Below, one piece after another: positions 550 to 37,700 of a DNA stretch of 44,412 bases. The notes beneath the pieces are model-generated. The model did no database searches. It was not told the DNA's origin and was given only the letters and a program-made list of their open reading frames with translations. A program made the position numbers and the translations under genes. Location of the stretch: positions 1-44,412 of the IMG/VR virus record IMGVR_UViG_3300022173_000053. One strand, given 5' to 3'. Position 1 is the stretch's first letter. Every line of letters starts with the position of its first letter. This stretch comes from a virus (taxonomy: Duplodnaviria; Caudoviricetes).

Positions 550-1080
550 ATGACGACGTTCGTACCCGCGGCCATGATGGCCGCTGATGTTGCATCCCAG
601 GCCGAGCTCGATGCGGGGCTGGCCGTCAAACTCACCGGCGACGTGATCCAGCGCGCCCGGTTCGCCACGGGTGAGGTGTCCACCGGCACCACGGTGCACG
701 CGAACGGCAACATCCCTGCGATCACCGAGGGCAACCAGGTGATGTCGTTGGCCTTCACTCCCACCTCGGCCACCAGCATCCTGCGCATCCGCGTCGTGAC
801 CCATTGCGGCACGTCGGTGGTGAACACGATCGCCATGGCCTCGCTGCATGCGGGCGGTGCTGCGATCGCGGCGGCGGCGGGCTACTGCGACACGGTGGCC
901 GGCATGCGGCAACTGGTGATCGACCACGAGATGGTCGCAGGCGTCACCACCGAGATCACGTTCACCGTGCGCCAAGGCTTGAACCTGGCCGGCACCATGA
1001 CCTTCAATGGCACGGGCGGCATCCGGCGTTTTGGCGGGGTGCTGTGCTCGCACATCACGATCGAGGAAATCAAGGCGTGA
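550..1080 (+). CDS. Short tail-fibre/receptor-binding protein, paralog of the C-terminal domain of the 40673-42229 fibre
   Basis: ATG 550 after GGAGG. Shares TGTT..IP..TEG and TF.VR.G...AGT.T.NG.GG.RR.GGV motifs with the fibre tip. Confidence 0.7.
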   Translation: MTTFVPAAMMAADVASQAELDAGLAVKLTGDVIQRARFATGEVSTGTTVHANGNIPAITEGNQVMSLAFTPTSATSILRIRVVTHCGTSVVNTIAMASLHAGGAAIAAAAGYCDTVAGMRQLVIDHEMVAGVTTEITFTVRQGLNLAGTMTFNGTGGIRRFGGVLCSHITIEEIKA

Positions 1081-1086
1081 TGGCCC

Positions 1087-1104
1087 GGGTTGCGCGAGCG
1101 ACCC
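1087..1104 (+). terminator. GNRA-capped hairpin at the end of the late operon (possible terminator)
   Basis: GGGTTGC-GCGA-GCGACCC just after the last late gene. No strong U-tract. Confidence 0.35.
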
Positions 1105-1118
1105 ACTAGATGTAGTGT
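1103..1118. promoter_or_regulatory. NrdR-box-like palindrome A
   Basis: CCACTAGATGTAGTGT (reverse complement ACACTACATCTAGTGG) fits the consensus acaCwAtATaTwGtg. Confidence 0.5.
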
Positions 1119-1210
1119 GAATTTCGGATTTGGGCGGAGCGGGCGCTGGCGCGTGCAGGGTCTTGAAACTGCTGGGCGTTCGGGCAAGCGTGGCCGCAAA
1201 GGTAAACGCT

Positions 1211-1238
1211 CCCGCGCATAAGGTATAGTATGGTACTA
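1211..1238 (+). other. dif-like XerC/XerD recombination site (candidate attP or resolution site)
   Basis: CCCGCGCATAA-GGTATA-GTATGGTACTA versus E. coli dif GGTGCGCATAA-TGTATA-TTATGTTAAAT: 19/28 identities, 19/22 in the core. AT-rich island between the convergent arms. Confidence 0.62.
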
Positions 1239-1248
1239 CATTCTGCGA

Positions 1249-1264
1249 ATACTACATATAGTCT
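1249..1264. promoter_or_regulatory. NrdR-box-like palindrome B
   Basis: ATACTACATATAGTCT. A degenerate tandem copy, GTACTACATTCTGCGA, lies at 1233-1248. Confidence 0.5.
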
Positions 1265-1596
1265 TAGAACTTATTGCGTGATTTCTTCGGCCGCCCTCTC
1301 CCTCGTACCCGATCCAGCTTGCGATTGCACTGGCGAACTACCCGGTAGACCTCCAGCATGGTCATCGCCGGGCGCTCGGTGCTGAACCTGGAGATGCAGT
1401 CGAGCCGGGTGGCCAGGCCGTGCAGTTCCTCGGCGACACGGCGCAGGGCCTGCACCGAGCGCAGCGGGATCTCCAGCCTGACGACATCGCCGATCCAGAC
1501 TGTTTCGTTGTCGGCCGGCTCGTCGATCAGGCGGCCTCGGAGGTTGAAGCTGTCGCGGGGGCCGGTGGCCGGCGGCTTGGGGGGCTGATGTTCCAT
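1264..1596 (-). CDS. Hypothetical protein with C-terminal AT-hook (RGRGRPKK)
   Basis: Last gene of the leftward arm. Start MEHQPP at 1596 chosen; the ORF track extends to 1644. Basic C-terminus. Confidence 0.65.
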   Translation of the reverse strand: MEHQPPKPPATGPRDSFNLRGRLIDEPADNETVWIGDVVRLEIPLRSVQALRRVAEELHGLATRLDCISRFSTERPAMTMLEVYRVVRQCNRKLDRVRGRGRPKKSRNKF

Positions 1597-1616
1597 TCGC
1601 AATGCGTACCACATAT

Positions 1617-1633
1617 GGTGTGAATATCGCAAT
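1617..1633. promoter_or_regulatory. 17-bp operator-like site
   Basis: GGTGTGAATATCGCAAT, matching the genome-wide GDTGYGA-N3-YCRCAHC motif. Confidence 0.6.
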
Positions 1634-4141: not shown

Positions 4142-4612
4142 TCATAGCTTCAGCACCTCAACGTCATGCGGCTGCCGGCGGCCGGTCAGGATCTCGTGAA
4201 TCCGTTTTTCCGTGCGGCGGTGGGCGCGCACCATGGTCCTGTGCGGCACTGCCTCCAGCACGGCGGCGTAGTCCTCCAGCACCGCGCGCACAGCCTGGAT
4301 GCCTGCGCCGTCGAGCCGGATCGGTTTGCCCTGCTGGGCCCTGCGACCTGCCATGGCCAGCGCGGTGATCGCGTCCATGAGCAGGCCGCTGGAATCCTCG
4401 ACGACCTCCATGGCGATGAGGGTTTCCATGAGGTTCACCGCATCCGAGCACAAACGCCAGTCGTTCGTGCTGGGCGCCGGGCTGGACTCGATTGCGGCCA
4501 GGCCCTGCCACATCAGGCTGAGTTGATGCGTGCGGCTGGTGGCTGGCGTGGGCTCTGTGGGGCTCGCGGTGATCTCGTCGAGCAGGGTGTAGGTGGGGCG
4601 GTACTTTTTCAC
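4142..4612 (-). CDS. Conserved phage hypothetical protein (all-helical)
   Basis: 156-aa ORF, GTGA-coupled to the HTH gene, typical codon usage. Confidence 0.7.
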   Translation of the reverse strand: MKKYRPTYTLLDEITASPTEPTPATSRTHQLSLMWQGLAAIESSPAPSTNDWRLCSDAVNLMETLIAMEVVEDSSGLLMDAITALAMAGRRAQQGKPIRLDGAGIQAVRAVLEDYAAVLEAVPHRTMVRAHRRTEKRIHEILTGRRQPHDVEVLKL

Positions 4613-4818
4613 CGCGTCTCCACCGTTCGCGCCTTGATGTACGCCGTGATCACCTTTTGCGAGTACCGAACCGGCGAAGTAGGCCGGTCCCCGAGCTTCA
4701 CGTACTCCGGGCCGACGCGACGCGCGCGCCAGCTTTCGAGGGTGGTGGGTTTGATGCCGAGTTGGGCCCCAGCTTGCGCCGGGGTCAGCATCGCATCGCG
4801 GTCAGATTGGCGAGTCAC
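4609..4818 (-). CDS. AlpA/excisionase-like HTH DNA-binding protein
   Basis: LTPAQAGAQLGIKPTTLESWR...GPEYVKLG...VRY signature. GTG at 4818 follows GGAGG (alternative starts 4830 or 4791). Confidence 0.8.
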   Translation of the reverse strand: MTRQSDRDAMLTPAQAGAQLGIKPTTLESWRARRVGPEYVKLGDRPTSPVRYSQKVITAYIKARTVETR

Positions 4819-5650
4819 TGCCGCCTCCATCGTATTCGTGCTGATCAGCCGGCGCCGATTCCATGTCGATCACGCCGTCGTCGTCGGGCTGTGGCGCGGG
4901 GGCTTGCGCTGCGACTTTGGCCAGCCGGCTCGGGCGGCGGGGTGCCTCGGTGGCCGGCTCGGCTGCAGGCTGCGCTGGCGCCTGCTCGGCCTCGGGCGGC
5001 GCAAACAGTTCGTCGTCGGAGCGCAGCACGTCGTCCAGATCGGTGCTCATCGGCAGGCGCTTGGAGTGGCGGCGCACCACGGTTTTCTTCGCCATCTCGG
5101 AGAAGTCGGACACCCAGGGCCCGGACGTGCCCGAGCGACTGCGCTTGCGGATCGCCTCGATGTCCTCCACGCTCATGAATTCGCGCGACTTCTCGCCGTC
5201 TTTCATGGTGACGATCGAGTACGCGCCGATCAGTTTCCCGCGGCCCGACAGCGCCGGCTTGTGCACGATGCGCTCGTTGTCGCCGAGCTCGTAGTCAAAA
5301 CTGTCGTGCTCGTAGACCGACTGCACGCTCCAGGTGCTGATCTCGCCGGAGTTGCGTACCAGCTTCATGATGCCGGCCACCATGGGCATGAACTGCGCAA
5401 CCTTGCCGAACGTGACGATGGCACCCTCGCGGCCGTCGGGCAGCAGTCCCATCTGGCTGGCGCGCATTGCGCTGGCGAACAGCGTGCGGCGGTCGGCATC
5501 GAGCAGCGCCGGGGTCATCTGAATGGCGGTCATCACCACGCGGACGAACCGGGCGGGCTCGACGTGCTTGGGGAGCGCGGCCGCGAACTGCGGCTGCATG
5601 GCGGTCAGCTGCTGGCGGACCTGATCTACGGGGGCGAGTTGGTTGCTCAT
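4802..5650 (-). CDS. recT: RecT-family ssDNA annealing protein
   Basis: QFAAALPKH...RF.R, GL.PD, S.GPW.SDF.EMAKKTV.RR..K.LP.S motifs. Confidence 0.93.
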   Translation of the reverse strand: MSNQLAPVDQVRQQLTAMQPQFAAALPKHVEPARFVRVVMTAIQMTPALLDADRRTLFASAMRASQMGLLPDGREGAIVTFGKVAQFMPMVAGIMKLVRNSGEISTWSVQSVYEHDSFDYELGDNERIVHKPALSGRGKLIGAYSIVTMKDGEKSREFMSVEDIEAIRKRSRSGTSGPWVSDFSEMAKKTVVRRHSKRLPMSTDLDDVLRSDDELFAPPEAEQAPAQPAAEPATEAPRRPSRLAKVAAQAPAPQPDDDGVIDMESAPADQHEYDGGGSDSPI

Positions 5651-7945: not shown

Positions 7946-8527
7946 TCAGGTCTGGATCAGCACCACGGGCGTGGCCCATTCAAGATCCACGTCGGTGATC
8001 GCCGCCACCGGCCCCGACAGGTTCCAGCGCCCGGCCTGGTAGCCCCGGCGCACCTGCGCGATGGAGGTCATGCCTTTGCGGATCTTCACCAGCGACAGGC
8101 GCTCAAGGGCCTCGGTCTGCACGGCATCGCTCGGGTTTCCCACGAACAGCAACCAGCGGTCCATGTAGTCCAGCGGCGTGCCGGCCGTCCTGCACTGAAT
8201 AGCCTTGGTGGCGCTCACTGCGCCCGGCATGGGGACTTTCCCGAGCCCGGTGGCCCACGACACCTCGCCGTGGCCGTCCATGGTGCCGGCGATCTGCACC
8301 TGCGCGCCACCAGCGCCGAGGCGAACCCCGGCATTGGCCATCACTTCCTCGGCGGGCACACCCAGCAGGCGCGCAATCTCTGCGGCTTCGGTGAGCTTCA
8401 TCTGGCGTTGCCCCCGGAGCATGAGGGAAACAGCCGCGGAGTCCAGGCCCATGCGCCGCGCCAGTTCGCGCTGCGACATCTCCCGGTCGGACAATCTGGC
8501 TCGGAACCACTTGGTATTGATGGGCAT
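7946..8527 (-). CDS. cI: CI-like repressor (XRE HTH plus degenerate S24-like C-terminal domain)
   Basis: MSQRELARRMGLDSAAVSLMLRGQRQM HTH, divergent from a cro-like gene. Confidence 0.85.
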   Translation of the reverse strand: MPINTKWFRARLSDREMSQRELARRMGLDSAAVSLMLRGQRQMKLTEAAEIARLLGVPAEEVMANAGVRLGAGGAQVQIAGTMDGHGEVSWATGLGKVPMPGAVSATKAIQCRTAGTPLDYMDRWLLFVGNPSDAVQTEALERLSLVKIRKGMTSIAQVRRGYQAGRWNLSGPVAAITDVDLEWATPVVLIQT

Positions 8528-8550
8528 GATGCCGTTACATCTGGCATACA

Positions 8551-8604
8551 TTTGCGTCGATTGCAACACTGTTGGGTTTTTGCTATCATTGCGATAATCT
8601 CAAC
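8551..8604 (+). promoter_or_regulatory. PR-like promoter and OR-like operator array
   Basis: TTGCAA(8561)-17-TATCAT(8584). 17-bp sites at 8588-8604 (ATTGCGATAATCTCAAC), with weaker copies at 8551-8567 and 8571-8587. Confidence 0.7.
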
Positions 8605-8617
8605 ACGCAGGAGTTCT

Positions 8618-8860
8618 ATGAACGACAAGAAAAACGCGCCGGAAAAACGCTCGCCGGCTCAGAAAGTCATCGCTGTATTTGGCGGCGTTCGGGCAACCGC
8701 GCGCATCCTGGGGCGCAACGGTTCCACCGTCAGTCGTTGGCAGAAGCCCCGCGCCGAGGGTGGCACCGGGGGTCGAATTCCAACGTCGGCACAGGGGCCT
8801 CTGCTGGAGCATGCGCGGGCCAATGGACTGCCACTCACCGCCGACGACTTGATCGCCTGA
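8618..8860 (+). CDS. cro: Cro-like repressor
   Basis: VIAVFGGVRATARILG....TVSRW...GG.IP HTH. AGGAG RBS. Confidence 0.85.
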   Translation: MNDKKNAPEKRSPAQKVIAVFGGVRATARILGRNGSTVSRWQKPRAEGGTGGRIPTSAQGPLLEHARANGLPLTADDLIA

Positions 8861-9914: not shown

Positions 9915-11317
9915 TCGAGCTTCGCCCCCGTCAGGTTAAGGCGATCCATGACATCCGAGCAGCCTACCAGGCCGGGTACATTGCGCCCCTTCTCCGAGCC
10001 GCCACCGGTTTTGGGAAAACTGCAACAGCCATCAACATGATTGCGGCCGCTGTCGCAAAGGGCCGGCGTGTGTGGTTTTTGGCCCACCTGAAGGAAATCA
10101 ACCACGACACCGCGCGGCGCCTGGCTGCGGAAAATCTGCCGTTTGGCTACATCATGGCCGGCCAGTTGTCCGATCGACGCAAGCCCATTCAGGTTGCGAT
10201 GGTGCAGACTGCTGTGCGCCGGCTCGATAGGCTGGAGCCGCCCGACCTGATCTTGGTCGACGAGGCGCACCTGGCGGTGGCCCCGACGTACCAAGAGATT
10301 TTCCGATGGGCGAAGGCTGGGCCGAAGTTCTACGAGCCTGGCGGTGCGAAGCTGCTTTCGCTGACAGCCACCGCGGTTCGTCTCGATGGACGTGGCCTCA
10401 ACGAAATTGCAGATGTCATCGTCGAAACCTGCTCGACGCAAGACCTGATCGACGAGGGGCTGCTCGCGCCGATCCGCTACTACGCCCCGAAGTCCGAGGA
10501 TCTGGCCGGCATCAAGACCCGCGGCGGCGACTTCGCGCAGGACGAGCTCGCGCGCATCATGGACAAACCCAAGATCACCGGGTCGGCGGTGGCCGAATAC
10601 CGCAAGGTCGCGCACGGCCGGCCTGCGGTGGCGTTCTGCGTCTCCATTGAGCACGCCCAGCACGTGGCCGAGGAATTCCGGGCGGCCGGGTATCGCGCCG
10701 TGGCCATCTCTGGCGAGTCCGACCCGACCGAGCGCGACGCTGCGCTCTCAGGCCTGCAGGATGGCCGACTCGACGTGGTGTGCAACTGCGCGCTGTGGGT
10801 GGCCGGTGTCGACGCGCCGGCTGTGGCCTGCATCATCATGCTGGCGCCCACGCAGTCGCTCACGAAATACCTGCAGTCGATCGGCCGTGGCCTGCGCACG
10901 CACCCGGGCAAGGATTGCTGTGTCGTGCTCGATCACGCCGGGAACCTGGGCCGCCATGGGCCGCCTGCCGCGGTGCGCGAGTGGAGCCTGGAGGCGACCG
11001 AGAAAAAGAAGGGCGCGAAGAAATCCGAGGTGCCGGTGAAAACGTGCCCGTCGTGTTTTGCCGTGGTGCACTCGGCGGCGACCGACTGCGGTTGCGGCCA
11101 CCATTTCGTGACCGAGGGCCGCAAGCTGGAGGAAGTCGAGGGCGAGCTCCAGGCGGTGGATCTGACGGCCGCACGCGTGGAGCAGCGGCGCGAGCAGGGC
11201 AGGGCGCAGACCGAGGCGGATCTCGTGGCGCTGGGCCGGGCTCGGGGGATGAAGCGTCCAGAGTTGTGGGCCCGCCATGTGATCCGTGCGCGGCATGCGA
11301 AGGAGGCTCGCGTATGA
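9911..11317 (+). CDS. SF2 DEAD/DEAH-box helicase with C-terminal zinc ribbon
   Basis: ATGFGKT Walker A, DEAH, LTAT, QSIGRGLR, CPSC...CGCG. Confidence 0.93.
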   Translation: MIELRPRQVKAIHDIRAAYQAGYIAPLLRAATGFGKTATAINMIAAAVAKGRRVWFLAHLKEINHDTARRLAAENLPFGYIMAGQLSDRRKPIQVAMVQTAVRRLDRLEPPDLILVDEAHLAVAPTYQEIFRWAKAGPKFYEPGGAKLLSLTATAVRLDGRGLNEIADVIVETCSTQDLIDEGLLAPIRYYAPKSEDLAGIKTRGGDFAQDELARIMDKPKITGSAVAEYRKVAHGRPAVAFCVSIEHAQHVAEEFRAAGYRAVAISGESDPTERDAALSGLQDGRLDVVCNCALWVAGVDAPAVACIIMLAPTQSLTKYLQSIGRGLRTHPGKDCCVVLDHAGNLGRHGPPAAVREWSLEATEKKKGAKKSEVPVKTCPSCFAVVHSAATDCGCGHHFVTEGRKLEEVEGELQAVDLTAARVEQRREQGRAQTEADLVALGRARGMKRPELWARHVIRARHAKEARV

Positions 11318-23615: not shown

Positions 23616-26069
23616 ATGGCCGTTGCGACGCCCGACAGCTACACGTTCACGCCGGGCACTCCGCTTTACGCGGGGTTGCCGACGCCATCAGTGGGCGGGC
23701 TCATCACGACGCTTAGTCTGGTGAACACCTCTGGCAGCACGCAGGCGGCGAACTTCGTCAGCCCGATGCTTGGGATGCCGTTCAAGGCTGGTGATCTCCC
23801 AAGCGGCGAGTACCCGGTGTTCACGCTGGAGGATGACACGCCGGTTCCCGCCACGGTGTACAGCGATACCTCGTGGCCGGATTCGTCCAAGAAGTTCTGC
23901 GGGGTGTTGCTGCGCACTCCCACGTCAATTGCAGGCTCTGGCACTCTCTCCGTTGAGGTCAAGGGCGGCGGCTCTGCGCCTGCGGCTAGCTCACGCACGT
24001 TGAGCGACCTTACAGCGGCGGACATCACGGTCGAGTTGACGGGCATCACCAACCTCTCTGGTGTTTGGACGGCCTCGCTCAACACCGCGATCACGGACGC
24101 GACCGACATTGTTGTCATCGGTGACGGTCCAGCGGGTAAGGTATGGCGTATTGGTGGCCCGTTCAAGCAATCCGGTGCTGCCCATGGGCAACTGCATTGC
24201 TGGCATTACGTGGCCGCTTTGCAGAACAGTGTGGGTGGCCTGCTCGGCATTCGCTACCTCGGCCGCATTGCGCAGCCTTGGGCCGATGTCTCAAGCCCGA
24301 CACCGAACAACCGCCGCGCGACTGGTGTACTCAAATCTGGTGCCTCCACGATCCGCACGCTGCAAGGCGTCACCGGATCTGAGGTCACTGGCAACAACAT
24401 CGACATCGACCACTACACATCGTTCTTCACGGCTGGCGCAGACGCCAAGTGGGACTACGTGCAGGGTGGCGGATCAGCCTCGGCTGACTGCACCGTTCGT
24501 GTGGTGTTTGATGAGTCGTACTTCATCAAAACGCGCATGGTGCCGCCGTATGACACCGCTTTGAACCCTACGGCTGGCTCCAGCGTGGACTATGTGGCGT
24601 ACTGCAAAGGCCCCTACGAGCAGCGCAACATGACCTCATCAGGTCCACGCGCCGAGGTTGGCATTCTCCCGACATGGGTGGCACGGCATGTGCTCACGCA
24701 GTCCGCAGTGGACGAGCGCGTGTGTCGTGTGGCCGGTTTGGCTGCTGGTGGCTGGAATACAACCCTTCGCCGCAGCACGACCAATCAGCCGATCCCATGC
24801 GTTGACATTGACGCGAGCTACACCGGCCTGGGCACCATTCAGACCACATGGCGGTTCATCACGGGTGGCAACAGCGGCCCGGTCACCCCATCTTCTGGTG
24901 TTGACATCTGGCCCAGCTCGCACGAATCCAGCCACCGGCCATCGGGCACGTATTACCCGTATCTCATCACGGGCGAGCCGCAGTATCTGGACATGCTGGT
25001 GGAAGAGGCGGCAGAGATTGTCATGGCGGCTGTGCAAGGATCAACCACCTTCAATACCTCGCTGCCCATCACTGCGGTTACAGGTGCCTACGGCGGCACG
25101 CGCAGCGTCATCATCAACGGCACAACCTACAAGAACGGCGGCGGGTTCATTCGTGGAGACCTGTACCGCGTGTCTGCGTGGCTGATGCGTGATCTGGCGC
25201 AAGCGGCTGCGATCTACCCTGACACCTGCCCATCAGGAACGGCGATCCGCGACTACCTGCGCGACCTTGTAACAGACGCCTATTCCGCTGTTGCAGCCTA
25301 CAACGCACTGATGGCGACAAGCTGGCGTGACACCGGCATGTGGACGATGTTGGGCAATGGGTCCACCGACGCCGATTTTGAATCGCCTTGGGCTTTGGCT
25401 TACGTGTCCGACACGGTTTGCCACACTGAAAGTATTTTGCCCGGCTTGGGTGCACTGGCCTTCCGTCAGCACCTCGCCAAGTTCTATTCGTCGCTCGCCG
25501 CGTCCATCGACATTGCAAGCATCACGGCGTACCGAATGAGCCAGTTCAAAGGCGACGGTACGCGGGTGGACTCGACCGATGATTTGGTGTTCACCTTTGG
25601 CGGCACGCTGACCTCCAGCACCACGGACAGCAGGTTTACCACGCCTGACGCATGGAACCCCACAAATGGTGATGTGTTCATGTTCACTACGGTGGCCAAC
25701 ATCGGAGATGCCGACAAGCCGTTTGCCGCCGCAACAAACAACACCCGCCTGTACGCCGTGAACGTGTCGGGCAAGACCTTTCAGCTTTCGCTCACGCTGG
25801 GCGGTTCGCCGATCACAGTGACCAGCAACGTGACGATCACGTCATGGCTGTGCCGCCTGCAAAACGCAGCACCCATCAACAGTTTTGAGGGGTTGTTCGG
25901 CACCAGTTCGATGCTCTCCAACATGCGCGCAGCGGTCAGCCATCACGTCGCTTGCGGAGACTCTGTGGCATCAGCGGCACGCACTGAGATTGACGCTCGC
26001 GCAACGTCTGCGGGCCTCACGTACACAGCCGATCCCAAGTGGGCATTCGTGCCCGCGTACCCGGTGTAA
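23616..26069 (+). CDS. Large virion appendage protein, polysaccharide-lyase-like (YetA/PL26-type architecture)
   Basis: G.PF..GD.P...W.D.S.K N-terminal sandwich, then G.R.E.G..P.W and SH.P...Y.PYL.TG...YL..L helical-barrel motifs. Confidence 0.55.
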   Translation: MAVATPDSYTFTPGTPLYAGLPTPSVGGLITTLSLVNTSGSTQAANFVSPMLGMPFKAGDLPSGEYPVFTLEDDTPVPATVYSDTSWPDSSKKFCGVLLRTPTSIAGSGTLSVEVKGGGSAPAASSRTLSDLTAADITVELTGITNLSGVWTASLNTAITDATDIVVIGDGPAGKVWRIGGPFKQSGAAHGQLHCWHYVAALQNSVGGLLGIRYLGRIAQPWADVSSPTPNNRRATGVLKSGASTIRTLQGVTGSEVTGNNIDIDHYTSFFTAGADAKWDYVQGGGSASADCTVRVVFDESYFIKTRMVPPYDTALNPTAGSSVDYVAYCKGPYEQRNMTSSGPRAEVGILPTWVARHVLTQSAVDERVCRVAGLAAGGWNTTLRRSTTNQPIPCVDIDASYTGLGTIQTTWRFITGGNSGPVTPSSGVDIWPSSHESSHRPSGTYYPYLITGEPQYLDMLVEEAAEIVMAAVQGSTTFNTSLPITAVTGAYGGTRSVIINGTTYKNGGGFIRGDLYRVSAWLMRDLAQAAAIYPDTCPSGTAIRDYLRDLVTDAYSAVAAYNALMATSWRDTGMWTMLGNGSTDADFESPWALAYVSDTVCHTESILPGLGALAFRQHLAKFYSSLAASIDIASITAYRMSQFKGDGTRVDSTDDLVFTFGGTLTSSTTDSRFTTPDAWNPTNGDVFMFTTVANIGDADKPFAAATNNTRLYAVNVSGKTFQLSLTLGGSPITVTSNVTITSWLCRLQNAAPINSFEGLFGTSSMLSNMRAAVSHHVACGDSVASAARTEIDARATSAGLTYTADPKWAFVPAYPV

Positions 26070-26072
26070 GCC

Positions 26073-28280
26073 ATGGCATTCAACGACGCTTTTACCGGGA
26101 CCGCTGGGCAAAAGATCATCGCCCGCTCGGGCTGGGCCATGCTCGGCTCTGGCTCCACTGGCGACAACCCGGAAATCAACGCCGCAGGCACTCGGATGGC
26201 CTCCGCTGCGTCAAACGGCGATGCCGGAATGATCGGGCAGGACACCGGGACGACTGACCACTACGTCCAAGCGAAGCTCTACACCGGGTTCCAATGGGGC
26301 GAGTCTGGCAACCTTCCTTTGCTTTGCGTCAGGACCGACAGCCGCAACGAGGGCTGGGGCCTGATGTACCGCACATCGACGAGTTCTTGGCAGATTTACA
26401 AGGCTGGTGCGGGTGCTGGGTTGCGCGGTTCATACGCCGCAACTTTTGTTGATGGCGATGTCGTTCGGCTTGAGGCTGAAGGTGCTGACATTCGGTTTTA
26501 TCTGAATGGAACCCTGCGACTGACAGACCCCGGCGTTACGGATGGCCTGACACAAACCGGCGTTGGCATCCTAGTGCGCAACGTGGCATCGTCTGTGGAC
26601 ATTGCTGACGACTGGGAGTCGGGCGCGCTTGCGCCAGCCGACACTACCGCCCCCACGCTGACCAGCGCAGCACTGGATGCAATCAGCCCCACGGCCTTGA
26701 ATGGCTCCGTGACGACCGATGAGGCTGGCCCTGCATGGGCAGTCATCACCACATCGGCCACGACGCCAACGGACACGCAGATCAAGGCGGGCGAGGACCA
26801 CACGGGATCGGCTGCGGTGGACTCCGACACCGCCACGCTTTCGATTGGCGCGAACGCCGATGTATTCAGTTTCACCGGCTCGGCTTCGACCACGTACTAC
26901 ATGCATGTGGTGCAGGACGATGAGGCGGGCTCGCCTAACACGTCCGACCCGATCAGCTCGGCAGGCGAGACGACACCAACGCCTGACGCTATCGCTCCAC
27001 TCGTGACTTCGGTTGGCGCATTAGTGAAGTCCAACGCGCTCGCGGTGATTTCGGCCACGACGAACGAAGCCAACGGCACCATGTACTTGGTGACGACCAC
27101 CAGCGCGACACCTCCTGACGCGGATCAGGTGATGGCTGGCACGGACCACGCTGATGCTGCGGCTGTGTTTGACGACTTGCAGGCCATCGGCTCTACGGGC
27201 GTCAAGACGTTCAACGCGACGGGCCACACGGCGCTGCAAACGTACTACGGGTACGTGATGCACCGCGATGCCGCGGGCAACAACTCGGATGTGGAAGCCA
27301 CCGGCTCGTTCGTCATGTTCGACGACGGCGCCACCGGCCAGGCAATCATCGACGACACGTCCGCCATCCCCGGGGTGCAGGAAGACGGCATCCTGGTCAA
27401 CGACGTGGAGTTGCCAGCCGATGCCGACAAGTGGTTCACCTACGATGTCGTGACCCCGGTGGTGGACACGGCGAGCCTGACGCTGTTTCCCAATGGCTCG
27501 CTGATCTGGACCGGCACGTCGGCGGACTCGTTCACCTACCAGCTCAAGGTCGATGGCGTCGATGTCGGCGCGCCGCAACTGGTGACGCTGGCGCCCGTTG
27601 GCCCGCCAGACGACGAAGACCCTGTGCTCACCGGCGATCTGGTCGCCACCGACATCACAGACACCAGTTACACCCTGACCTGGCCCGCCGCCACCGACAA
27701 CGCGGGCGTTGCTGGCTACGAGGTGAGCCTGAACAACGGCAGCAGCTACACGAACGTCGGCCTGGTGCTGACAACGGGCATCACCGGGCGTACGCCAGAA
27801 GCCACTGATCTGACGCGCGTGCGAGCCTACGATGCCGCCGGCAACCGCAGCGACTTCCTGGCCGAGTCGGTGACGCTGCTTGAAACCCCCGAGCCTCCCG
27901 ACGAGATCGCGCCTGAACTCAGCCTGCCCACGGCCACGACCACGGGGGCGACCACCGCCGACGCGACCGTCACCACGAACGAGGCCGATGGCGCGCTGTT
28001 CTGGGTGCGCACGGCCAACCTGACCGAAGACAAGAACGCCGTGGTGGCCACTGCTACGGCCGCCGGCGCCACGCAGGCGGTCACGGCCAGCGGCCTGCAG
28101 TCCTACGGCGTGACCGGGCTCGACCCAGCGTCGACTGGCCGGGTGCACACCGTCCACCGCGACGCCGCGGGCAACGTCTCCGACACGATCAGCACCGCTG
28201 AATTCACGACCAATGCATTCGGCGGCGGCGCGGGCGGAAACTCGACGGGATTGAGCATCGGGCTGCGCATCGGTTTGTAA
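26073..28280 (+). CDS. Head fibre-like protein: lectin/ConA-like N-terminus, Ig/FN3 repeats, C-terminal GLSIGLRIGL
   Basis: FN3 motif LTW.AATDN.GV.GYEV...VRAYDAAGN.S. Three DxxAP...TT.EA.G...H.D.AGN.S-type repeats. Confidence 0.65.
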   Translation: MAFNDAFTGTAGQKIIARSGWAMLGSGSTGDNPEINAAGTRMASAASNGDAGMIGQDTGTTDHYVQAKLYTGFQWGESGNLPLLCVRTDSRNEGWGLMYRTSTSSWQIYKAGAGAGLRGSYAATFVDGDVVRLEAEGADIRFYLNGTLRLTDPGVTDGLTQTGVGILVRNVASSVDIADDWESGALAPADTTAPTLTSAALDAISPTALNGSVTTDEAGPAWAVITTSATTPTDTQIKAGEDHTGSAAVDSDTATLSIGANADVFSFTGSASTTYYMHVVQDDEAGSPNTSDPISSAGETTPTPDAIAPLVTSVGALVKSNALAVISATTNEANGTMYLVTTTSATPPDADQVMAGTDHADAAAVFDDLQAIGSTGVKTFNATGHTALQTYYGYVMHRDAAGNNSDVEATGSFVMFDDGATGQAIIDDTSAIPGVQEDGILVNDVELPADADKWFTYDVVTPVVDTASLTLFPNGSLIWTGTSADSFTYQLKVDGVDVGAPQLVTLAPVGPPDDEDPVLTGDLVATDITDTSYTLTWPAATDNAGVAGYEVSLNNGSSYTNVGLVLTTGITGRTPEATDLTRVRAYDAAGNRSDFLAESVTLLETPEPPDEIAPELSLPTATTTGATTADATVTTNEADGALFWVRTANLTEDKNAVVATATAAGATQAVTASGLQSYGVTGLDPASTGRVHTVHRDAAGNVSDTISTAEFTTNAFGGGAGGNSTGLSIGLRIGL

Positions 28281-28333: not shown

Positions 28334-28981
28334 ATGGCATCGAAAGTCTCCATCGCAAACCGCGCGCTGACCAAACTCGGCGACCAGCGCATCCTGCTGT
28401 TGTCGGATGACAACAACGCGGCCCGCACGCTGAACTCGATGTTCGACGATGTGCGCGACGCCGAGATCCGGCGCCACCGGTGGAAGTTCGCATTGAAGCG
28501 CGACCAACTTTCCGCCCTGGTGGCAGCGCCGTCGTGGGGGTTCCAGTTCCAGTACCCGCTGCCGACCGACTTCCTCGGTCTGGTGCAGGTCAACGAGTTC
28601 TACATCCGAACGGGCCTCACCTACAAAACCGCGTGGTCGGTGGAGGCGGGCAACATTCTGACCGACTTCCCGGCGCCGCTGAAGATCCGCTACATGGCGC
28701 GCATCGACAACCCGGCGCTGTACGACCCGCTGTTCGTCGAGGTGCTGGCCTGCAAACTGGCGCTGGAATCTTGCGAGGCGCTGACGCAATCCAGCGCGAA
28801 GAAACAGTCGGCCATGGAGGAATACAAGTTCGCGCTGTCCGAGGCGCTGCGCCAGGACGCGATCGAGAACCCGCCCGATGAGATGCCGCAAGGCTCGTGG
28901 CTGGACTCGCGCCAGTCGGACAATCGCTACGGCGGTGGTGGGAATCCTTGGGAAGCGTTCCCCGGGGGCTTCACGGTATGA
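28334..28981 (+). CDS. Tail tubular protein A / head-tail adaptor (T7 gp11-like)
   Basis: S.V.IANRAL..LG...I, H.W.FA..R..L, Y.LP.D.L, F...LA..LA. Confidence 0.88.
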   Translation: MASKVSIANRALTKLGDQRILLLSDDNNAARTLNSMFDDVRDAEIRRHRWKFALKRDQLSALVAAPSWGFQFQYPLPTDFLGLVQVNEFYIRTGLTYKTAWSVEAGNILTDFPAPLKIRYMARIDNPALYDPLFVEVLACKLALESCEALTQSSAKKQSAMEEYKFALSEALRQDAIENPPDEMPQGSWLDSRQSDNRYGGGGNPWEAFPGGFTV

Positions 28982-31209
28982 GCAAGGCCAGCCCGATCCT
29001 CGAGAACTTCAACACCGGCGAACTCTCGCCGCTGATCGCGGGGCGCGTCGGATTCGAGAAATACCCGAACGGCGCGTCGCTGCTGGAGAACTTCATCCCG
29101 ACCACGCAGGGCCCGAACGTGCGCCGCGCAGGCACGCGGTTTGTGGGCGAGGTAAAAAGCTCGGCGGCCAAAGTGCTGCTGGTGCCATTCGAGTTCTCGG
29201 TCACGCAGGCCTACATGCTGGAGTTCGGCAACCTGTACGTGCGGTTCTACACGTGGGACGCTGTGACGAAAGTGCGCGGCATTTTGGAGTCGAGCCCGGG
29301 CGTTCCTGTTGAGGTGGTGACGCCCTACACGACAGCCGATCTCTACAACGCTGACGGAACTCCGCGCCTGCGGTTCGCGCAGTCAGGCGACTTCCTGTAC
29401 CTCACCCACTCACGCCACAAACAGCGCGTGCTGCAGCGCACCACGGTCACGTCGTTTACGCTGACCGAGTACGCGGCCAAGGGTGGTCCGTGGAAGTCGC
29501 TGAACGACACAGCCATTACGGTGTATGCCTCGGCCGAAACTGGCTCGGTGACGCTGACCGCGAGCGCGCCGATTTTTCAGGCCGGCCACGTGGGTTCGCT
29601 GTTCTACCTGGAGTCGCGCGACGTGAACGCCATCCCCGCGTGGGAGGTGGGCAAGGTTATCGCGCTGGCGGCGCGGCGCCGATCGGATGGGAAAACCTAC
29701 GAGGCACTGAGCGCGGCCACCACCGGCACGAACCGGCCTGTGCACACCGAGGGCGCGCTGCTCGATGGCGACGCGGGCGTCTCGTGGGAGTTCCGTGACC
29801 CGGGCTACGGCTATGTGCTGATCACGGCGTTCACATCGTCCACGGTTGTGACGGCCACGGTGATCGACCGGCTGCCGTCGCAGGTTGTTGGCGTCGGGCT
29901 GCCCACGACACGCTGGGCCTATTCCGAGTGGAGCGATGTGGAGGGCTGGCCATCGGATGTCACGTTCTACCGCGAGCGCCTGTGGTTCGGGAAGCGGCAA
30001 ATGGCCTGGGGTTCGGTGTCGGCAGACTTCACCGACTTCTCACCGCGCTCGTTCGGCCAGGTCACGGCGGACATGGCGATCACCGTCACGCTATCGTCGG
30101 GCAAGATCAACGACATCCAGTGGATGGTGCCCGACCGCGACCTGGTGATCGGCACGGCCGGCGGAGAGTTTGCTGTGGGCGAGCTCACCAACGGCGAACC
30201 CTTGGGCCCGACCAACCGACGCAGCAGGATCATGAGCCAGTTCGGATCGCGCGCCATCCCACCGATCAAGAACGTGGAGGCCCTGCTGTTCATCCAGCGA
30301 TCGGGCCTGAAGGCGCGGGAGACGTACTACGACTTCGGCAGCGACGGGTACAAGTCGAGCGACGCCACGGTGCTTGCCGAGCACATCACCCGCACCGGTG
30401 TCACGCAGATGGCGTTCGCCCCAGACCCTGATCAGATCGTCTGGGCGGTGCGCGCCGACGGCTTGCTGCTGGGCTTCACGTGGAACAACGAGCAGGCGGT
30501 GCGCGGCTGGCACCGGCACCCGATTGGTGGCGCTGGCGAGGTGGAATCCATCGCCGTGATGCCGGCAGCCGAGGGTGATCGCTCCGAACTTTGGATGGTG
30601 GTGAAACGCACGATCGACGGCGTGACGAAACGGTACGTCGAATATCTGGAGCGCGCCTACCGCACCGGCGACGCGCAGACCTCGCAGTTTTATGTGGACT
30701 CGGGCCTGTCGTACTCGGGCGCCGCGGTGACGACGATCTCGGGGTTGGGCCACCTGGAGGGCGCCACCGTGTCGGTGCTGGTGAACGGCGCACCGCACCC
30801 GAATGTGGTGGTGACAGCCGGCGAGATCGAACTGCAGCTGCCGGCGACCACCGCGCAGATCGGCCTGCCATGCCCGGCGCGCTACCGGTCAATGCGCTTG
30901 GAGGCGGGCGCGCGCGACGGTACATCGCAGGGCAAGACGAAACGGATCTCAAAGGTTGTGCTGCGGCTGGACAACACCGGGGGCGGCAAGTACGGCCCGC
31001 TGCAGGATGGCGGCCAGATGGACACACTGCAACTGCGGCGCGCGTCCGACGCGATGGACCAGCCGGCGCCGTTGTTCACGGGTGACAAAGTGGTTTCCTG
31101 GCCGAACGGCTACGACCTCGACGCGTACCTCGGTTTCGAGATCGACCAGCCGGTGGCGGCGACCTTGGTGGCGCTTATGCCACAAGTCACGACACAGGAC
31201 GCGCGGTGA
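28978..31209 (+). CDS. Tail tubular protein B / nozzle (T7 gp12-like)
   Basis: NFNTGELSP...GR, RR.GT.FV, LEFG..Y.RF, GWP..V.F...RL.F, WHRH. Confidence 0.9.
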   Translation: MSKASPILENFNTGELSPLIAGRVGFEKYPNGASLLENFIPTTQGPNVRRAGTRFVGEVKSSAAKVLLVPFEFSVTQAYMLEFGNLYVRFYTWDAVTKVRGILESSPGVPVEVVTPYTTADLYNADGTPRLRFAQSGDFLYLTHSRHKQRVLQRTTVTSFTLTEYAAKGGPWKSLNDTAITVYASAETGSVTLTASAPIFQAGHVGSLFYLESRDVNAIPAWEVGKVIALAARRRSDGKTYEALSAATTGTNRPVHTEGALLDGDAGVSWEFRDPGYGYVLITAFTSSTVVTATVIDRLPSQVVGVGLPTTRWAYSEWSDVEGWPSDVTFYRERLWFGKRQMAWGSVSADFTDFSPRSFGQVTADMAITVTLSSGKINDIQWMVPDRDLVIGTAGGEFAVGELTNGEPLGPTNRRSRIMSQFGSRAIPPIKNVEALLFIQRSGLKARETYYDFGSDGYKSSDATVLAEHITRTGVTQMAFAPDPDQIVWAVRADGLLLGFTWNNEQAVRGWHRHPIGGAGEVESIAVMPAAEGDRSELWMVVKRTIDGVTKRYVEYLERAYRTGDAQTSQFYVDSGLSYSGAAVTTISGLGHLEGATVSVLVNGAPHPNVVVTAGEIELQLPATTAQIGLPCPARYRSMRLEAGARDGTSQGKTKRISKVVLRLDNTGGGKYGPLQDGGQMDTLQLRRASDAMDQPAPLFTGDKVVSWPNGYDLDAYLGFEIDQPVAATLVALMPQVTTQDAR

Positions 31210-34736: not shown

Positions 34737-37700
34737 TGCCTCTCTACCTCGGCCAAGACGACGCCGGCACCTCGCAGTTCTCGCTGCAGGACTTTGAGCC
34801 ATCCTGGGCTTCGAAGATGAACGCATCCGTGCGTGAGGCTTGGCTGGAATCGTATGGCCCGGCGGCGCTGGATTACGCGATCCCGAAAGTGGCGCAGTTC
34901 CTCGGTGATGACACCAGCGCGAAACTCTCGGCGGCGGAGGCTGGCGACAAAATCAAGGAGTCGGGGGTCAAGTGGACCAAGCCGCTGGCAGACGGCCAGT
35001 ACACGCGAACGCAACTCGACATCATGCTCGAACGCCAGCGCGAACTGCAGGCCGTGAAAGACATCCGCGAGCGCACGCCATGGGATCTGAGCTCACCCCT
35101 GCGCGGCGCGGCCATGTTCGGCGCCGGCATCGCTGACCCGATCAACCTGGCCACCGCGTTCGTCCCGTGGACCAAAGCGCTGCCCATGGCGGCCGGCCTG
35201 CGCGCCGCGACGGTGGGTGGCTCGCTCGCTAGTCGCACCGGTGCGCGCTTTGCTGTCGGCGCGGCTGACGGCGGCATCTCAACACTGGCGCTGGAGCCGG
35301 CCTACTCGTTCGTGCGCAACGAACTCGGCGACGACTACGGCGCATTCGACTCGCTGGCGAACATTGCGTTCGGCACGGCATTCGGTGGCGGCATCCATGC
35401 CATCGGCGGGGCAGGGGCTGACGCGTTCCGCGCGCTGCGCTCGCGCCGGCCGGATGCCGTGCTGCCGCCGACGCCTGATGCCATGGCTGCCGCGCGCGAC
35501 ATGACGCCGGAGCAGCGCGCCGAGGCAGGTGTGGCGCCTGAGTCTGCGCGGGCTGGCATGCCTGAGATCGTGGAGCCGCGGGCACCCGCCGAGCCTGAAA
35601 TCCAGCCGGCGGCGCGCACGGCCGACGAACTGGCCGCGCAGATGCCCACGAAGCGCAACGACCTGATGGTCTACCTGCGCGACAACGGCGGTATCTCCCC
35701 GAAGCTGGCGCGCGATGCTGCCGGCGAGAACGGCGCGCTGCTGAACCGCAAATTGCCGGGCGTGATCAAGTCACGCGGCGCGCAGAACTACGACCAGATC
35801 GCCCAGAAACTGAGCGAGGACGGCTGGCTTCCTGAGGGCCTGGACCCGGCGAGCGCCGAGGGCGAGCGCATGACAGCCGACATTGTTTCGCGCGCGCTGA
35901 ATGGCGAGACGGTGCTGCGGGCTGCCGACGAACTGCAGCAGGCCGAACTGCGCGCGCGCCAGGCGTTCGATGAAGCGGACGTGCTGCGGTTTGAACTGGA
36001 AACCGAGGCCCGACTGGAGCGTGAGGCGATCCAAGCCGAGGCATCCATGGCGCGCACCATCGCCGAGGAAATCGATCCCGAAACCCGCGAGGCCGCCCTG
36101 CGCTCTGCCGTGGCGCAATCCGTCGACGGCCGCACCGTGGATGTGGAGGCAGTCGTCGGGCAGGACCCGGTGCTCGGCACCGCCACGAAGCGTGACGCAG
36201 CCGAGGCGGCCCAGCGCGCGCAGGAGCCTGAGTCCGTGGACCTTGCAGACTTCGAAGCGTCGGACGCCGTGGCTGCGCGCGTGGATTCTGGTGCGCGCTG
36301 GGATGGGATCACTGATGCCGAGGCAGCGCTGGGTGAGGCCGATCTGGCGCTGAATGAGACGGTGAAGGCGGGGGGTGATGCGTTTCGGTACAGCCGAGAG
36401 GGTGTGACGGAGACGCCTGCGTTCAAGGCTTGGTTTGGTGAGTCGAAGGTGGTCGGCGCCGACGGCAGGCCGCTGGCGGTGTTTCACGGCACCACATCCG
36501 ACTTCAGTCAGTTCGACCCCGGCAAGCGTGGGTCTGTGACCGGCGTGAGCGACGCCAAAAAGGGTTTCTTCTTTGCCGCCAGTGGCAAGGCGGCCAGCGA
36601 GTTCACGTGGGCCAGTGGCGACATGACGGGCAGCGTGATGCCTGTTTACCTGTCTTTTCAAGACCCGCTTGTCGTGACGATTCCTGGCGAGTGGGCGCCC
36701 GGGAAATACGACGCGGCGCTTGATCGTGCCAAGGCGCAAGGCAATGACGGCGTGATTGTGCGAGGCGCGACAACGCTGGGAACCGTAGCGGATTACTACA
36801 TTGCCTTCGAGTCCACCCAGATCAAATCCGCCACCGGCAACCGCGGCACTTTTGACCCCAAAAACCCCGACATCCGCTACAGCCTCGGCGAGATGGGCAT
36901 CACCGGCGAGGCGTCGCTGACCGTGCTCGCCGACGCTCTGCGCCAGTCATTTGGCGCCAGCACCGACGCCATGCTCGCCCGCGGCCAAATCCAGACCGTG
37001 GCCACGCCAGCAGACATCCCCGGCGGCCCACACCCGGGCGACGTGAAGGCAGCCACAGCACCCGACGGCCGCGTGTACGTGGTGGCCGAGAACGTATCTC
37101 CAGCCGAGGCGCGCGGCATCCTGCTGCACGAGGTGGGTGTGCACGTGGGCATGCGCGACATGCTTGGCCCCGAGGTGTTCGATTCCGTGCTGGCTGACTT
37201 GGATGCCGCCATCATCGGCGGCGAGGCATGGGCCCAGGCAGCGCGCGCTGCCGTGCCTGCTGACACCCCGGCCGGCCTGGTGCGCGAGGAACAGCTTGCC
37301 TACCTCGTGGAGAACTCCCCCGAACTGCCGATCGTGCAGCGGATCATCGCGGCCATCCGCGCGTGGGCGTACCGGAATTTCGAGTTCGCGCGCGACGCCA
37401 TCGAACTGACCGAGGCGGATTTCCGGGCGATGGCTGTGAGCGCGTTGCATCATGTGGCGCGCAACCGGGTGACGCGTGACGGATCGTCGGCGTTCTCGCG
37501 CCTGTCCAGCGACGGCGAGCCCGTGCCCGAGGGCATCACCATCCGCGAAACCCCCGAAGGATTCGAGGCGATCGACGCCCTTGGCCAGCGCGTGGGCTAC
37601 CTGCAGGACAACCTGCCGCGTGGCGCGGCTGAGAAACTGAACGAGAACGCCAGCGTCGACATTGTGAAGGTCGACCCGACGATCAAGGGCCAGGGCATCG

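Follow-up and report, generated by a model that had tools for sequence, protein, structure and literature searches.

The window, by which we mean the whole 44.4-kb stretch of DNA that was analysed, is a BPP-1-like phage genome. The earlier note on this DNA had judged the genome to be complete, and this holds, as CheckV gives a completeness of 100% and the ends of the window overlap over 129 nt at 97.7% identity, so that the record represents a complete circle. PHROG and Pfam scans covering 82, 27 and 79 ORFs revealed the gene set of a BPP-1/epsilon15-type podovirus with terminase, portal, capsid, tail tubes, internal virion proteins, Bbp16, Bbp19 and endolysin. Beside these structural and lysis genes the same scans detected a helicase, a Toprim-D5 primase-helicase, RecE/RecT, cI, a weak cro-like match and an HTH_17 protein. 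The best cultured match of the tail tube comes from the Burkholderia phages KL4/BcepC6B (41–42%), and the matches of terminase and tail tube (41–53%) are spread over several host groups. Two large genes inside the head-tail module (23616–26069 and 26073–28280, 817 and 735 aa) show almost no family match and a slightly lower GC content. Of the sequencing runs listed as sharing words with the window, six do so at 5–6% and none is an RNA run; four of the six were mapped and none of these four covers the site described here. The features at and around the locus are the following:

550..1080, plus strand: final gene of the late arm, with a homologue next to the integrase of the relative G017 (tblastn)
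1103..1118, no strand: box C, NrdR-like, 22.1 bits, on the XerC side, 111 bp from the XerC arm
1211..1221, plus strand: the dif-like site's XerC arm, positions 5–11 near-invariant in 22 distinct sites, 8/11 against E. coli dif
1222..1227, plus strand: 6-bp central (crossover) region, variable among phages and identical within each pair of sites flanking a cassette
1228..1238, plus strand: degenerate XerD arm, with T2, G5, G6, A8 and C9 kept across related sites
1249..1264, no strand: box B, palindromic, NrdR-like, 18.0 bits, on the XerD side, overlapping the stop codon of orfX
1264..1596, minus strand: orfX, encoding a 110-aa protein of no known family; it adjoins the dif-like site and is a candidate Xer activation or synapsis factor
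1606..1621, no strand: box A, NrdR-like, 17.6 bits, just upstream of orfX, likely an operator on the orfX promoter
4609..4830, minus strand: excisionase-like HTH_17 gene (PHROG/Pfam), which integrase-bearing relatives have too
7946..8569, minus strand: cI-type repressor (HTH_3, E 9e-8), kept in relatives, part of the temperate switch
within 8270–8860: cro-like ORF, weak matches

No recombinase, partition or Rep family was found in the PHROG and Pfam scans of these window ORFs. Six-frame searches of the window were likewise negative for tyrosine integrase (PF00589), resolvase (PF00239), large serine recombinase (PF07508), ParA (PF13614), ParB (PF02195) and protelomerase (PF16684), with the controls being detected each time. 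ParA and ParB were also absent from the 11 records searched for them, and the scanned window ORFs contain no ribonucleotide reductase family. The earlier note had missed neither a tyrosine nor a serine recombinase, ParA/ParB or a protelomerase when it reported none of them, and its cI and excisionase-like genes were found again, with the cro gene being represented by weak matches only.

The 28-mer at 1211–1238 agrees with E. coli dif at 19 of 28 positions (XerC arm 8/11, core 5/6, XerD arm 6/11) and at 19 of 22 in its inner part, and the recomputed values are the same as those first given for it. It is the best E. coli dif match of the genome, and as a score of 19 was reached in 2 of 200 whole-genome dinucleotide shuffles the comparison with E. 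coli alone is modest evidence. A matrix made from 21 other related sites gives 25.6 bits for the window site and 5.4 bits for the next-best position in the genome. With leave-one-out matrices the true site ranked first in 6/6 genomes (25.6–35.0 bits, next best 5.4–12.7), and the full phage-site matrix applied to a 1.5-kb E. coli stretch returned dif as its top match with 25.8 bits, followed by 3.6 bits. A second dif-like match in the window (1242–1269, 17/28) overlaps box B and was taken as chance.

Among the 22 distinct sites the XerC arm is conserved from position 5 to 11 (22, 22, 21, 22, 22, 22 and 20 of 22), the core is variable apart from its last base, and the XerD arm keeps T2 (20/22), G5 (20/22), G6 (21/22), A8 (15/22) and C9 (14/22), with positions 1, 3, 4, 10 and 11 being variable. 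The good XerC arm and degenerate XerD arm that had been described for the window are a pattern of the whole set, and conservation of the 28-mer in relatives, which had been proposed as a check, was found. Compared by eye with the tables of PMC2731167, the kept XerD-side positions are closer to the Rhizobiales-type arm than to the E. coli arm, the window core is that of the Bradyrhizobiaceae dif (Table S1 there), and the core of locus L030 is that of the Agrobacterium dif. The commonest phage core is absent from this 2009 dif table, of which one strand was searched. Cores differ also between close relatives, as the loci L123 and L137 are 80% identical around the module and yet have different ones. 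Integration driven by XafT requires the first or the fifth base of the XerD arm (PMC9226527), and the fifth innermost base is present in the window arm.

orfX and the three boxes next to the site add to what had been observed in the earlier note. Using a count matrix of 38 boxes, boxes C, B and A are the only matches above 11 bits in the window. They resemble NrdR operators in being 16-bp partial palindromes with invariant C4 and G13 (by eye against Table 1 of PMC13584703) and in their near-identity to published boxes, with box C sharing 12 consecutive bases with box 2 of E. coli nrdEF (by eye, same source). They differ from them in their arrangement: NrdR requires two boxes 15–16 or 26–27 bp apart (PMC13584703), and its operators are paired at 15–16 bp upstream of ribonucleotide reductase genes, whereas the boxes described here are single and lie around a recombination site, with box A preceding orfX and no ribonucleotide reductase gene. 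No partner at 31, 32, 42 or 43 bp was found for any window box, and being unpaired at the NrdR spacing they fail the definition of an NrdR operator. The protein binding them would probably be NrdR and not OrfX. A strong NrdR-like box (18.8 bits) was also observed in a relative lacking orfX, where it is situated upstream of the integrase at a distance of about 230 bp (L107 704, G017 5058).

The spacing of the boxes is regular. Measured from the inner end of the XerC arm, the centre of box B is 34–35 bp away in 23/24 modules (16/17 and 7/7, where for G009 the search window was placed relative to the site), the exception being L031, whose site is decayed. For box C the distance from the XerC arm falls into three classes of 88–90 bp (7 modules), 99–102 bp (5) and 110–113 bp (5), which among these 17 modules with a scoring box step by about one helical turn; the box is missing from G009, G011 and L027. 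Box A scores above 17 bits in 14/17 modules and would overlap the orfX promoter, for which a sigma-70 scan called no promoter at box A/orfX. Boxes B and C are 124–148 bp apart and might be bridged by looping or in trans.

A profile search yielded 177 homologues of OrfX, and an exhaustive search extended the family to 221 clusters at 50% identity. The window protein matched no PHROG family, neither it nor its homologues matched a Pfam family over the cut-off, and no match to OrfX was found in GenBank phages or PLSDB plasmids and no usable one in the Atlas. DUF3653/XafT (PF12375) was absent from five genomes as well as from 105 and 136 proteins of the OrfX family. The third-codon-position bias of orfX, compared with L003, is 30/24/49. 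A structural model (pLDDT 85) shows a helical hairpin (helices 48–71 and 76–98) followed by a basic tail, which is AT-hook-like, with the motif scoring weakly in 7/105 members. A ribbon-helix-helix fold, which the sequence had brought into consideration, is not borne out by the monomer model, which has no strand. Structure searches returned nothing specific (VIA-align, best Z 7.3, generic helical pairs), and the best match in BFVD (E 0.02) was to uncharacterised phage proteins. From its position and conservation, and by analogy, we regard OrfX as a candidate Xer helper. One further protein, P0122 (427 aa), combines a weak DEAD-helicase match with a full OrfX domain at its end and could be a fusion or a frame artefact.

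Together orfX, the dif-like site and the three boxes form a module spanning 1103–1621, which we followed through viral and metagenome contigs. Within the close family, all distinct loci that extend far enough downstream have, behind the orfX stop codon, a dif-like site of uniform orientation, except L031 (L010 and L026 were left out as false pattern matches, L009 and L024 because they end too early). At L031 (500–720) the XerC arm is decayed, and about 130 bp further on a complete dif-like site of alphaproteobacterial type is found in opposite orientation. In the distant family 13 of 22 new wide-pattern matches scored above 25 bits, while the 9 matches below 25 bits were left out of the locus comparison. 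Six of the 13 have the same module, four low-GC loci have a dif-like site in opposite orientation with boxes not matching, and three weak loci (28 bits) have no site. In the low-GC loci (L115, L122, L133 and L143) the site lies 70–137 bp downstream and the box pattern is absent, and one low-GC record (G051) carries a second, complete site with a box near a terminase gene. Three records (G009, G020, G044; loci G009 36260–36740, L110 and L129) carry an inserted HNH endonuclease gene, which separates orfX from box B and leaves the spacing between box B and the site intact. The module is located 3.9–7.3 kb from cI and is inverted in 4/12 genomes, as expected of a self-contained cassette.

The module and integrases exclude each other. 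PF00589 was found in 0/13 close and 0/13 distant orfX records, of which 5 and 3 are at least 90% complete, and including the window there are nine near-complete orfX genomes without integrase. Among 27 further records found through cI, nine encode an integrase, including 6/7 of the near-complete ones; none of these nine has orfX, and among the 27 records orfX turned up only in a single genome fragment, which has no integrase. Altogether 13 near-complete cI relatives divide into six with orfX only, six with integrase only and one with neither (Fisher p 0.005, with the genomes being related and not independent, the orfX genomes having been selected through orfX and one integrase genome, G037, being only a weak cI match). 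In a close relative of 94% completeness (G014) the searches detected neither an integrase nor orfX. No site above 9.5 bits is present at the integrase-bearing loci (7 loci, 6 records). In G017 the PF00589 gene (locus L107) converges on the homologue of window gene 550–1080, showing that the integrase occupies the same slot as the orfX-Xer module.

In three records two Xer-type sites, directly repeated and identical in their cores, enclose additional DNA of 710, 599 and 734 bp, respectively:

G004, 25511–26248: cassette between direct-repeat sites
G012, 10413–11039: cassette between direct-repeat sites
L033, 10229–10990: cassette between direct-repeat sites

A comparison of G004 with its near-identical empty allele L008 shows identity up to the XerC arm of the first copy, which resumes at the first core base of the second copy, and only 14 bp are shared. 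L033 and its empty allele G001 switch in the same way. G012 contains a duplication of about 50 bp that takes in box, arm and core, and with no empty allele to compare homologous recombination is possible there. All three cassettes carry a box of their own at 41 bp from their end; a 113-bp end with an inverted repeat is common to two of them (88% identity) and was found only in the two records already known. The cargo identified comprises a protein resembling Tad2 (PF11195, E 7e-24), a member of PF13876 (E 3e-15) and an HTH_3 gene accompanied by a small partner of no known family. Inverted pdif modules of Acinetobacter plasmids are a parallel for these cassettes. PF13876 is the family of the anti-CBASS sponge Acb4 (bioRxiv 2024.12.30.630793). 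The cassette structure fits either direct insertion into attP or excision together from a tandem array located at dif, a process described for TLC and CTX (PMC6744903). The cassettes point to a predicted site-specific route by which phages may gain anti-defence genes.

A second class of sites was found in other viral records, where 37 distinct complete dif-like sites have the same box 87–111 bp out on the XerC side. The box reaches at least 15 bits in 24/37 of them and in 3/17 background cores (p 0.003); since the scan pattern itself required the box core, only the excess score counts as evidence. orfX was absent from 12/12 of these records searched whole, so that such sites need not come with orfX and a host protein is indicated at the box. 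An integrase was lacking in 15/16 records and in 3/4 of the near-complete ones searched, and a box pair at the NrdR spacing occurs at 1/37 sites. Box B and orfX occur together with the weak XerD arm and are missing from the complete-dif class. The loci L162–L212 of this class come from many unrelated records, with several being located beside terminase or portal genes. In the related records L058, L060 and L062 a complete dif-like site directly adjoins terminase genes. In one provirus (L167, G066 28364–30150) box C accompanies a complete dif-like site in the interior, and a gene for a tyrosine recombinase lies about 1.3 kb away.

We searched for integrated copies in 185,579 GTDB genomes (one per species) with a pattern that catches 102/120 of the known OrfX homologues, and found no true match to an integrated prophage: 80 pattern matches were without any relative and one further match was false (9.4 bits). 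The family is rare, with 15 pattern matches in 2.9 million viral contigs, and thus its absence from GTDB is weak evidence. Among viral contigs, 12 matches to a complete dif with matching cores and 51 matches to an attR-like hybrid included no attL/attR junction of the orfX group, with 2/51 being known orfX modules. The longest contig listed for the 120 OrfX homologues is 44 kb. The proposal that the phage integrates at host dif via XerCD gained a conserved Xer-type site in the integrase slot, and the prophages bounded by dif that had been expected in bacterial genomes, or their attL/attR junctions in GTDB and viral records, were not found.

From these data the feature is a mobile, integrase-replacing Xer module of tailed phages with an uncharacterised protein family, phased NrdR-like boxes and cassette footprints. 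The 22 distinct sites, the mutual exclusion with integrases and the insertion footprints at the core together make a real, conserved Xer-type site, and that a site of XerC/XerD type stands in the integrase slot is well supported by the sequence comparisons. The site is very probably a substrate of XerC/XerD of one kind or another. What the recombination serves is less certain, and we favour, with a probability of roughly 55%, that the module at 1103–1621 is a TLC-type, XerCD-dependent attachment site, because of the weak XerD arm keeping its fifth base, the small dedicated gene beside the site, the boxes on both sides, the position in the integrase slot and the lack of partition genes.

According to this model host XerC and XerD would insert the phage at the chromosomal dif, with XerC binding the good arm and XerD binding the degenerate arm poorly. 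OrfX and the protein at box B, which lies one helical turn outside the XerD arm, would stabilise the synapse with dif or activate it, without need of FtsK, like XafT does for TLC. After integration one side would again have a working dif and the other side would hold a hybrid site that combines the weak XerD arm with box B and orfX and that would not be excised by FtsK, and the boxes on both sides of the core would become separated. Box A would repress orfX, and if the box protein is NrdR, both helper expression and excision would depend on the cell's dATP/ATP state. The same reaction could admit or co-excise small cassettes carrying their own site and box B. Integration as such has points against it, namely the lack of an integrated copy, the longest listed contig of 44 kb, the cores varying between close relatives and the commonest core being absent from the dif table. 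Further points count against the TLC-type reading, as OrfX is not DUF3653/XafT, the boxes are single, and the box-bearing complete-dif sites without orfX fit a role in resolution. We predict that the module works like the site of a TLC-type IMEX and, as no integrated copy was found and XafT is absent, do not file it as a member.

A broader version of this model is tentative and, taken as a whole, rather doubtful: OrfX would be a new class of Xer activator at dif, NrdR would both repress the activator and bridge the phased boxes, entry and exit would thereby be tied to the nucleotide state, and the site would act as an integron-like port for anti-defence sponges (Tad2, Acb4).

The main competing explanation, which we consider less probable than integration, is a resolution site like cer or psi, at which host XerC/XerD, with the help of a host accessory protein at the boxes and perhaps also of OrfX, would resolve dimers of the phage DNA without integration, in a multicopy episomal prophage or during theta replication. 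At cer the accessory position of ArgR is about 100 bp out. The box about 90–110 bp out on the XerC side recalls such accessory sequences (PMC5357621), and a resolution site needs a core that matches only itself, which agrees with cores varying between close relatives. The 37 complete dif-like sites with the same XerC-side box, several of them next to terminase genes and without orfX in 12/12, fit equally, RecE/RecT of the phage would make dimers, the encoded Toprim-D5 primase-helicase could serve autonomous replication, and no integrated copy was found in GTDB. Against a resolution site speaks the lack of a partition system in 11 records. A Rep family was not found among the scanned ORFs, nor an OrfX match in PLSDB plasmids. 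The module moreover replaces integrase and attP in the same slot, its degenerate XerD arm with a small dedicated gene is the pattern of TLC and the gonococcal island (GGI), and box B and orfX go with this weak arm and not with the complete-dif class. Cassette insertion is, or follows, an intermolecular event, and boxes flanking the core on both sides are unlike cer.

That OrfX itself binds the boxes as an autoregulated directionality factor, with the likeness to NrdR being convergent and the Xer basis unchanged, appears unlikely. Box A on the orfX promoter region, the AT-hook-like C-terminal motif (weak in 7/105) and the unpaired boxes would agree with it, but the same box occurs beside dif-like sites in phages without orfX and, with 18.8 bits, upstream of the integrase in the orfX-less G017, and the 12 consecutive bases common to box C and E. 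coli nrdEF box 2 (by eye) as well as the invariant C4/G13 point to NrdR.

Quite improbable is an origin of the double sites from RecT-type short-homology recombination or duplication, with the 28-mer being only a XerC-binding or regulatory element. The duplication of about 50 bp including box, arm and core in G012 and the RecE/RecT encoded by the phages could be read this way, but G004 and L008 switch exactly at the first core base with 14 bp shared, L033 and G001 do likewise, each of the three cassettes has its own box 41 bp from the end, and the XerD-side positions 2, 5, 6, 8 and 9 are kept. A chance match, for which the 19/28 in 2/200 shuffles could be quoted, or an integrase lost only in this assembly is refuted by the circular record, the 22 distinct conserved sites and the nine near-complete orfX genomes without integrase.

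If the TLC-type attachment site is the correct reading, tailed phages without an integrase that are classed as lytic may turn out to be temperate. OrfX would then represent a Xer helper not belonging to the XafT/DUF3653 family, which the XafT paper considers possible for the gonococcal island, and NrdR would be added to ArgR, ArcA and PepA among the host proteins that assist Xer. With a size of 0.5 kb the module is small enough for direct testing. In the literature found, hijacking of XerC/XerD for integration is known from filamentous phages, tailless phages, satellites and islands; going by titles and the opening lines of abstracts, no report of a tailed phage integrating by XerC/XerD was found, and supplementary lists of DUF3653 elements (PMC6744903) could include tailed prophages. 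No paper holding both NrdR and Xer was found among the matches listed.

Among known systems the TLC-phi satellite of Vibrio cholerae is alike in having no integrase of its own and in pairing a good XerC arm with a degenerate XerD arm in which the fifth innermost base is kept (PMC6744903, PMC9226527), and also in the small gene directly beside attP, which is true of both xafT and xafV (bioRxiv 2026.06.12.731946). In contrast, the phages described here are tailed and 37–55 kb in size, and the protein encoded next to the site has no relation to DUF3653. Flanking boxes are conserved here at fixed spacing, whereas XafT does not require flanking DNA, and integration at dif is a prediction only. The dif-type double jelly-roll prophages and inoviruses of Vibrio are similar in that relatives of the integrase type and of the dif type have a core genome in common and exchange the lysogeny module (PMC12715192), but they are non-tailed, use XafT/P15 and have curated attL/attR junctions (PMC12715192). 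The gonococcal genetic island with its difGGI is likewise a large element whose XerD arm is degenerate and which has no protein like XafT (PMC6744903), and differs in being no phage and in being found integrated. With cer (ArgR/PepA) and psi (ArcA/PepA) the module shares a Xer core and a box of host-regulator type on the XerC side, from which it is set apart by NrdR-like boxes on both sides, a dedicated phage gene, a core of 6 bp (8 in cer) and no partition genes found. Cultured BPP-1/epsilon15-like podoviruses typically encode their own tyrosine integrase. The window is like the BPP-1/epsilon15/BcepC6B-type temperate podoviruses in Bbp16, Bbp19, portal, tail tubes, cI and RecE/T, and it differs from them in carrying the orfX-Xer module instead of the integrase.
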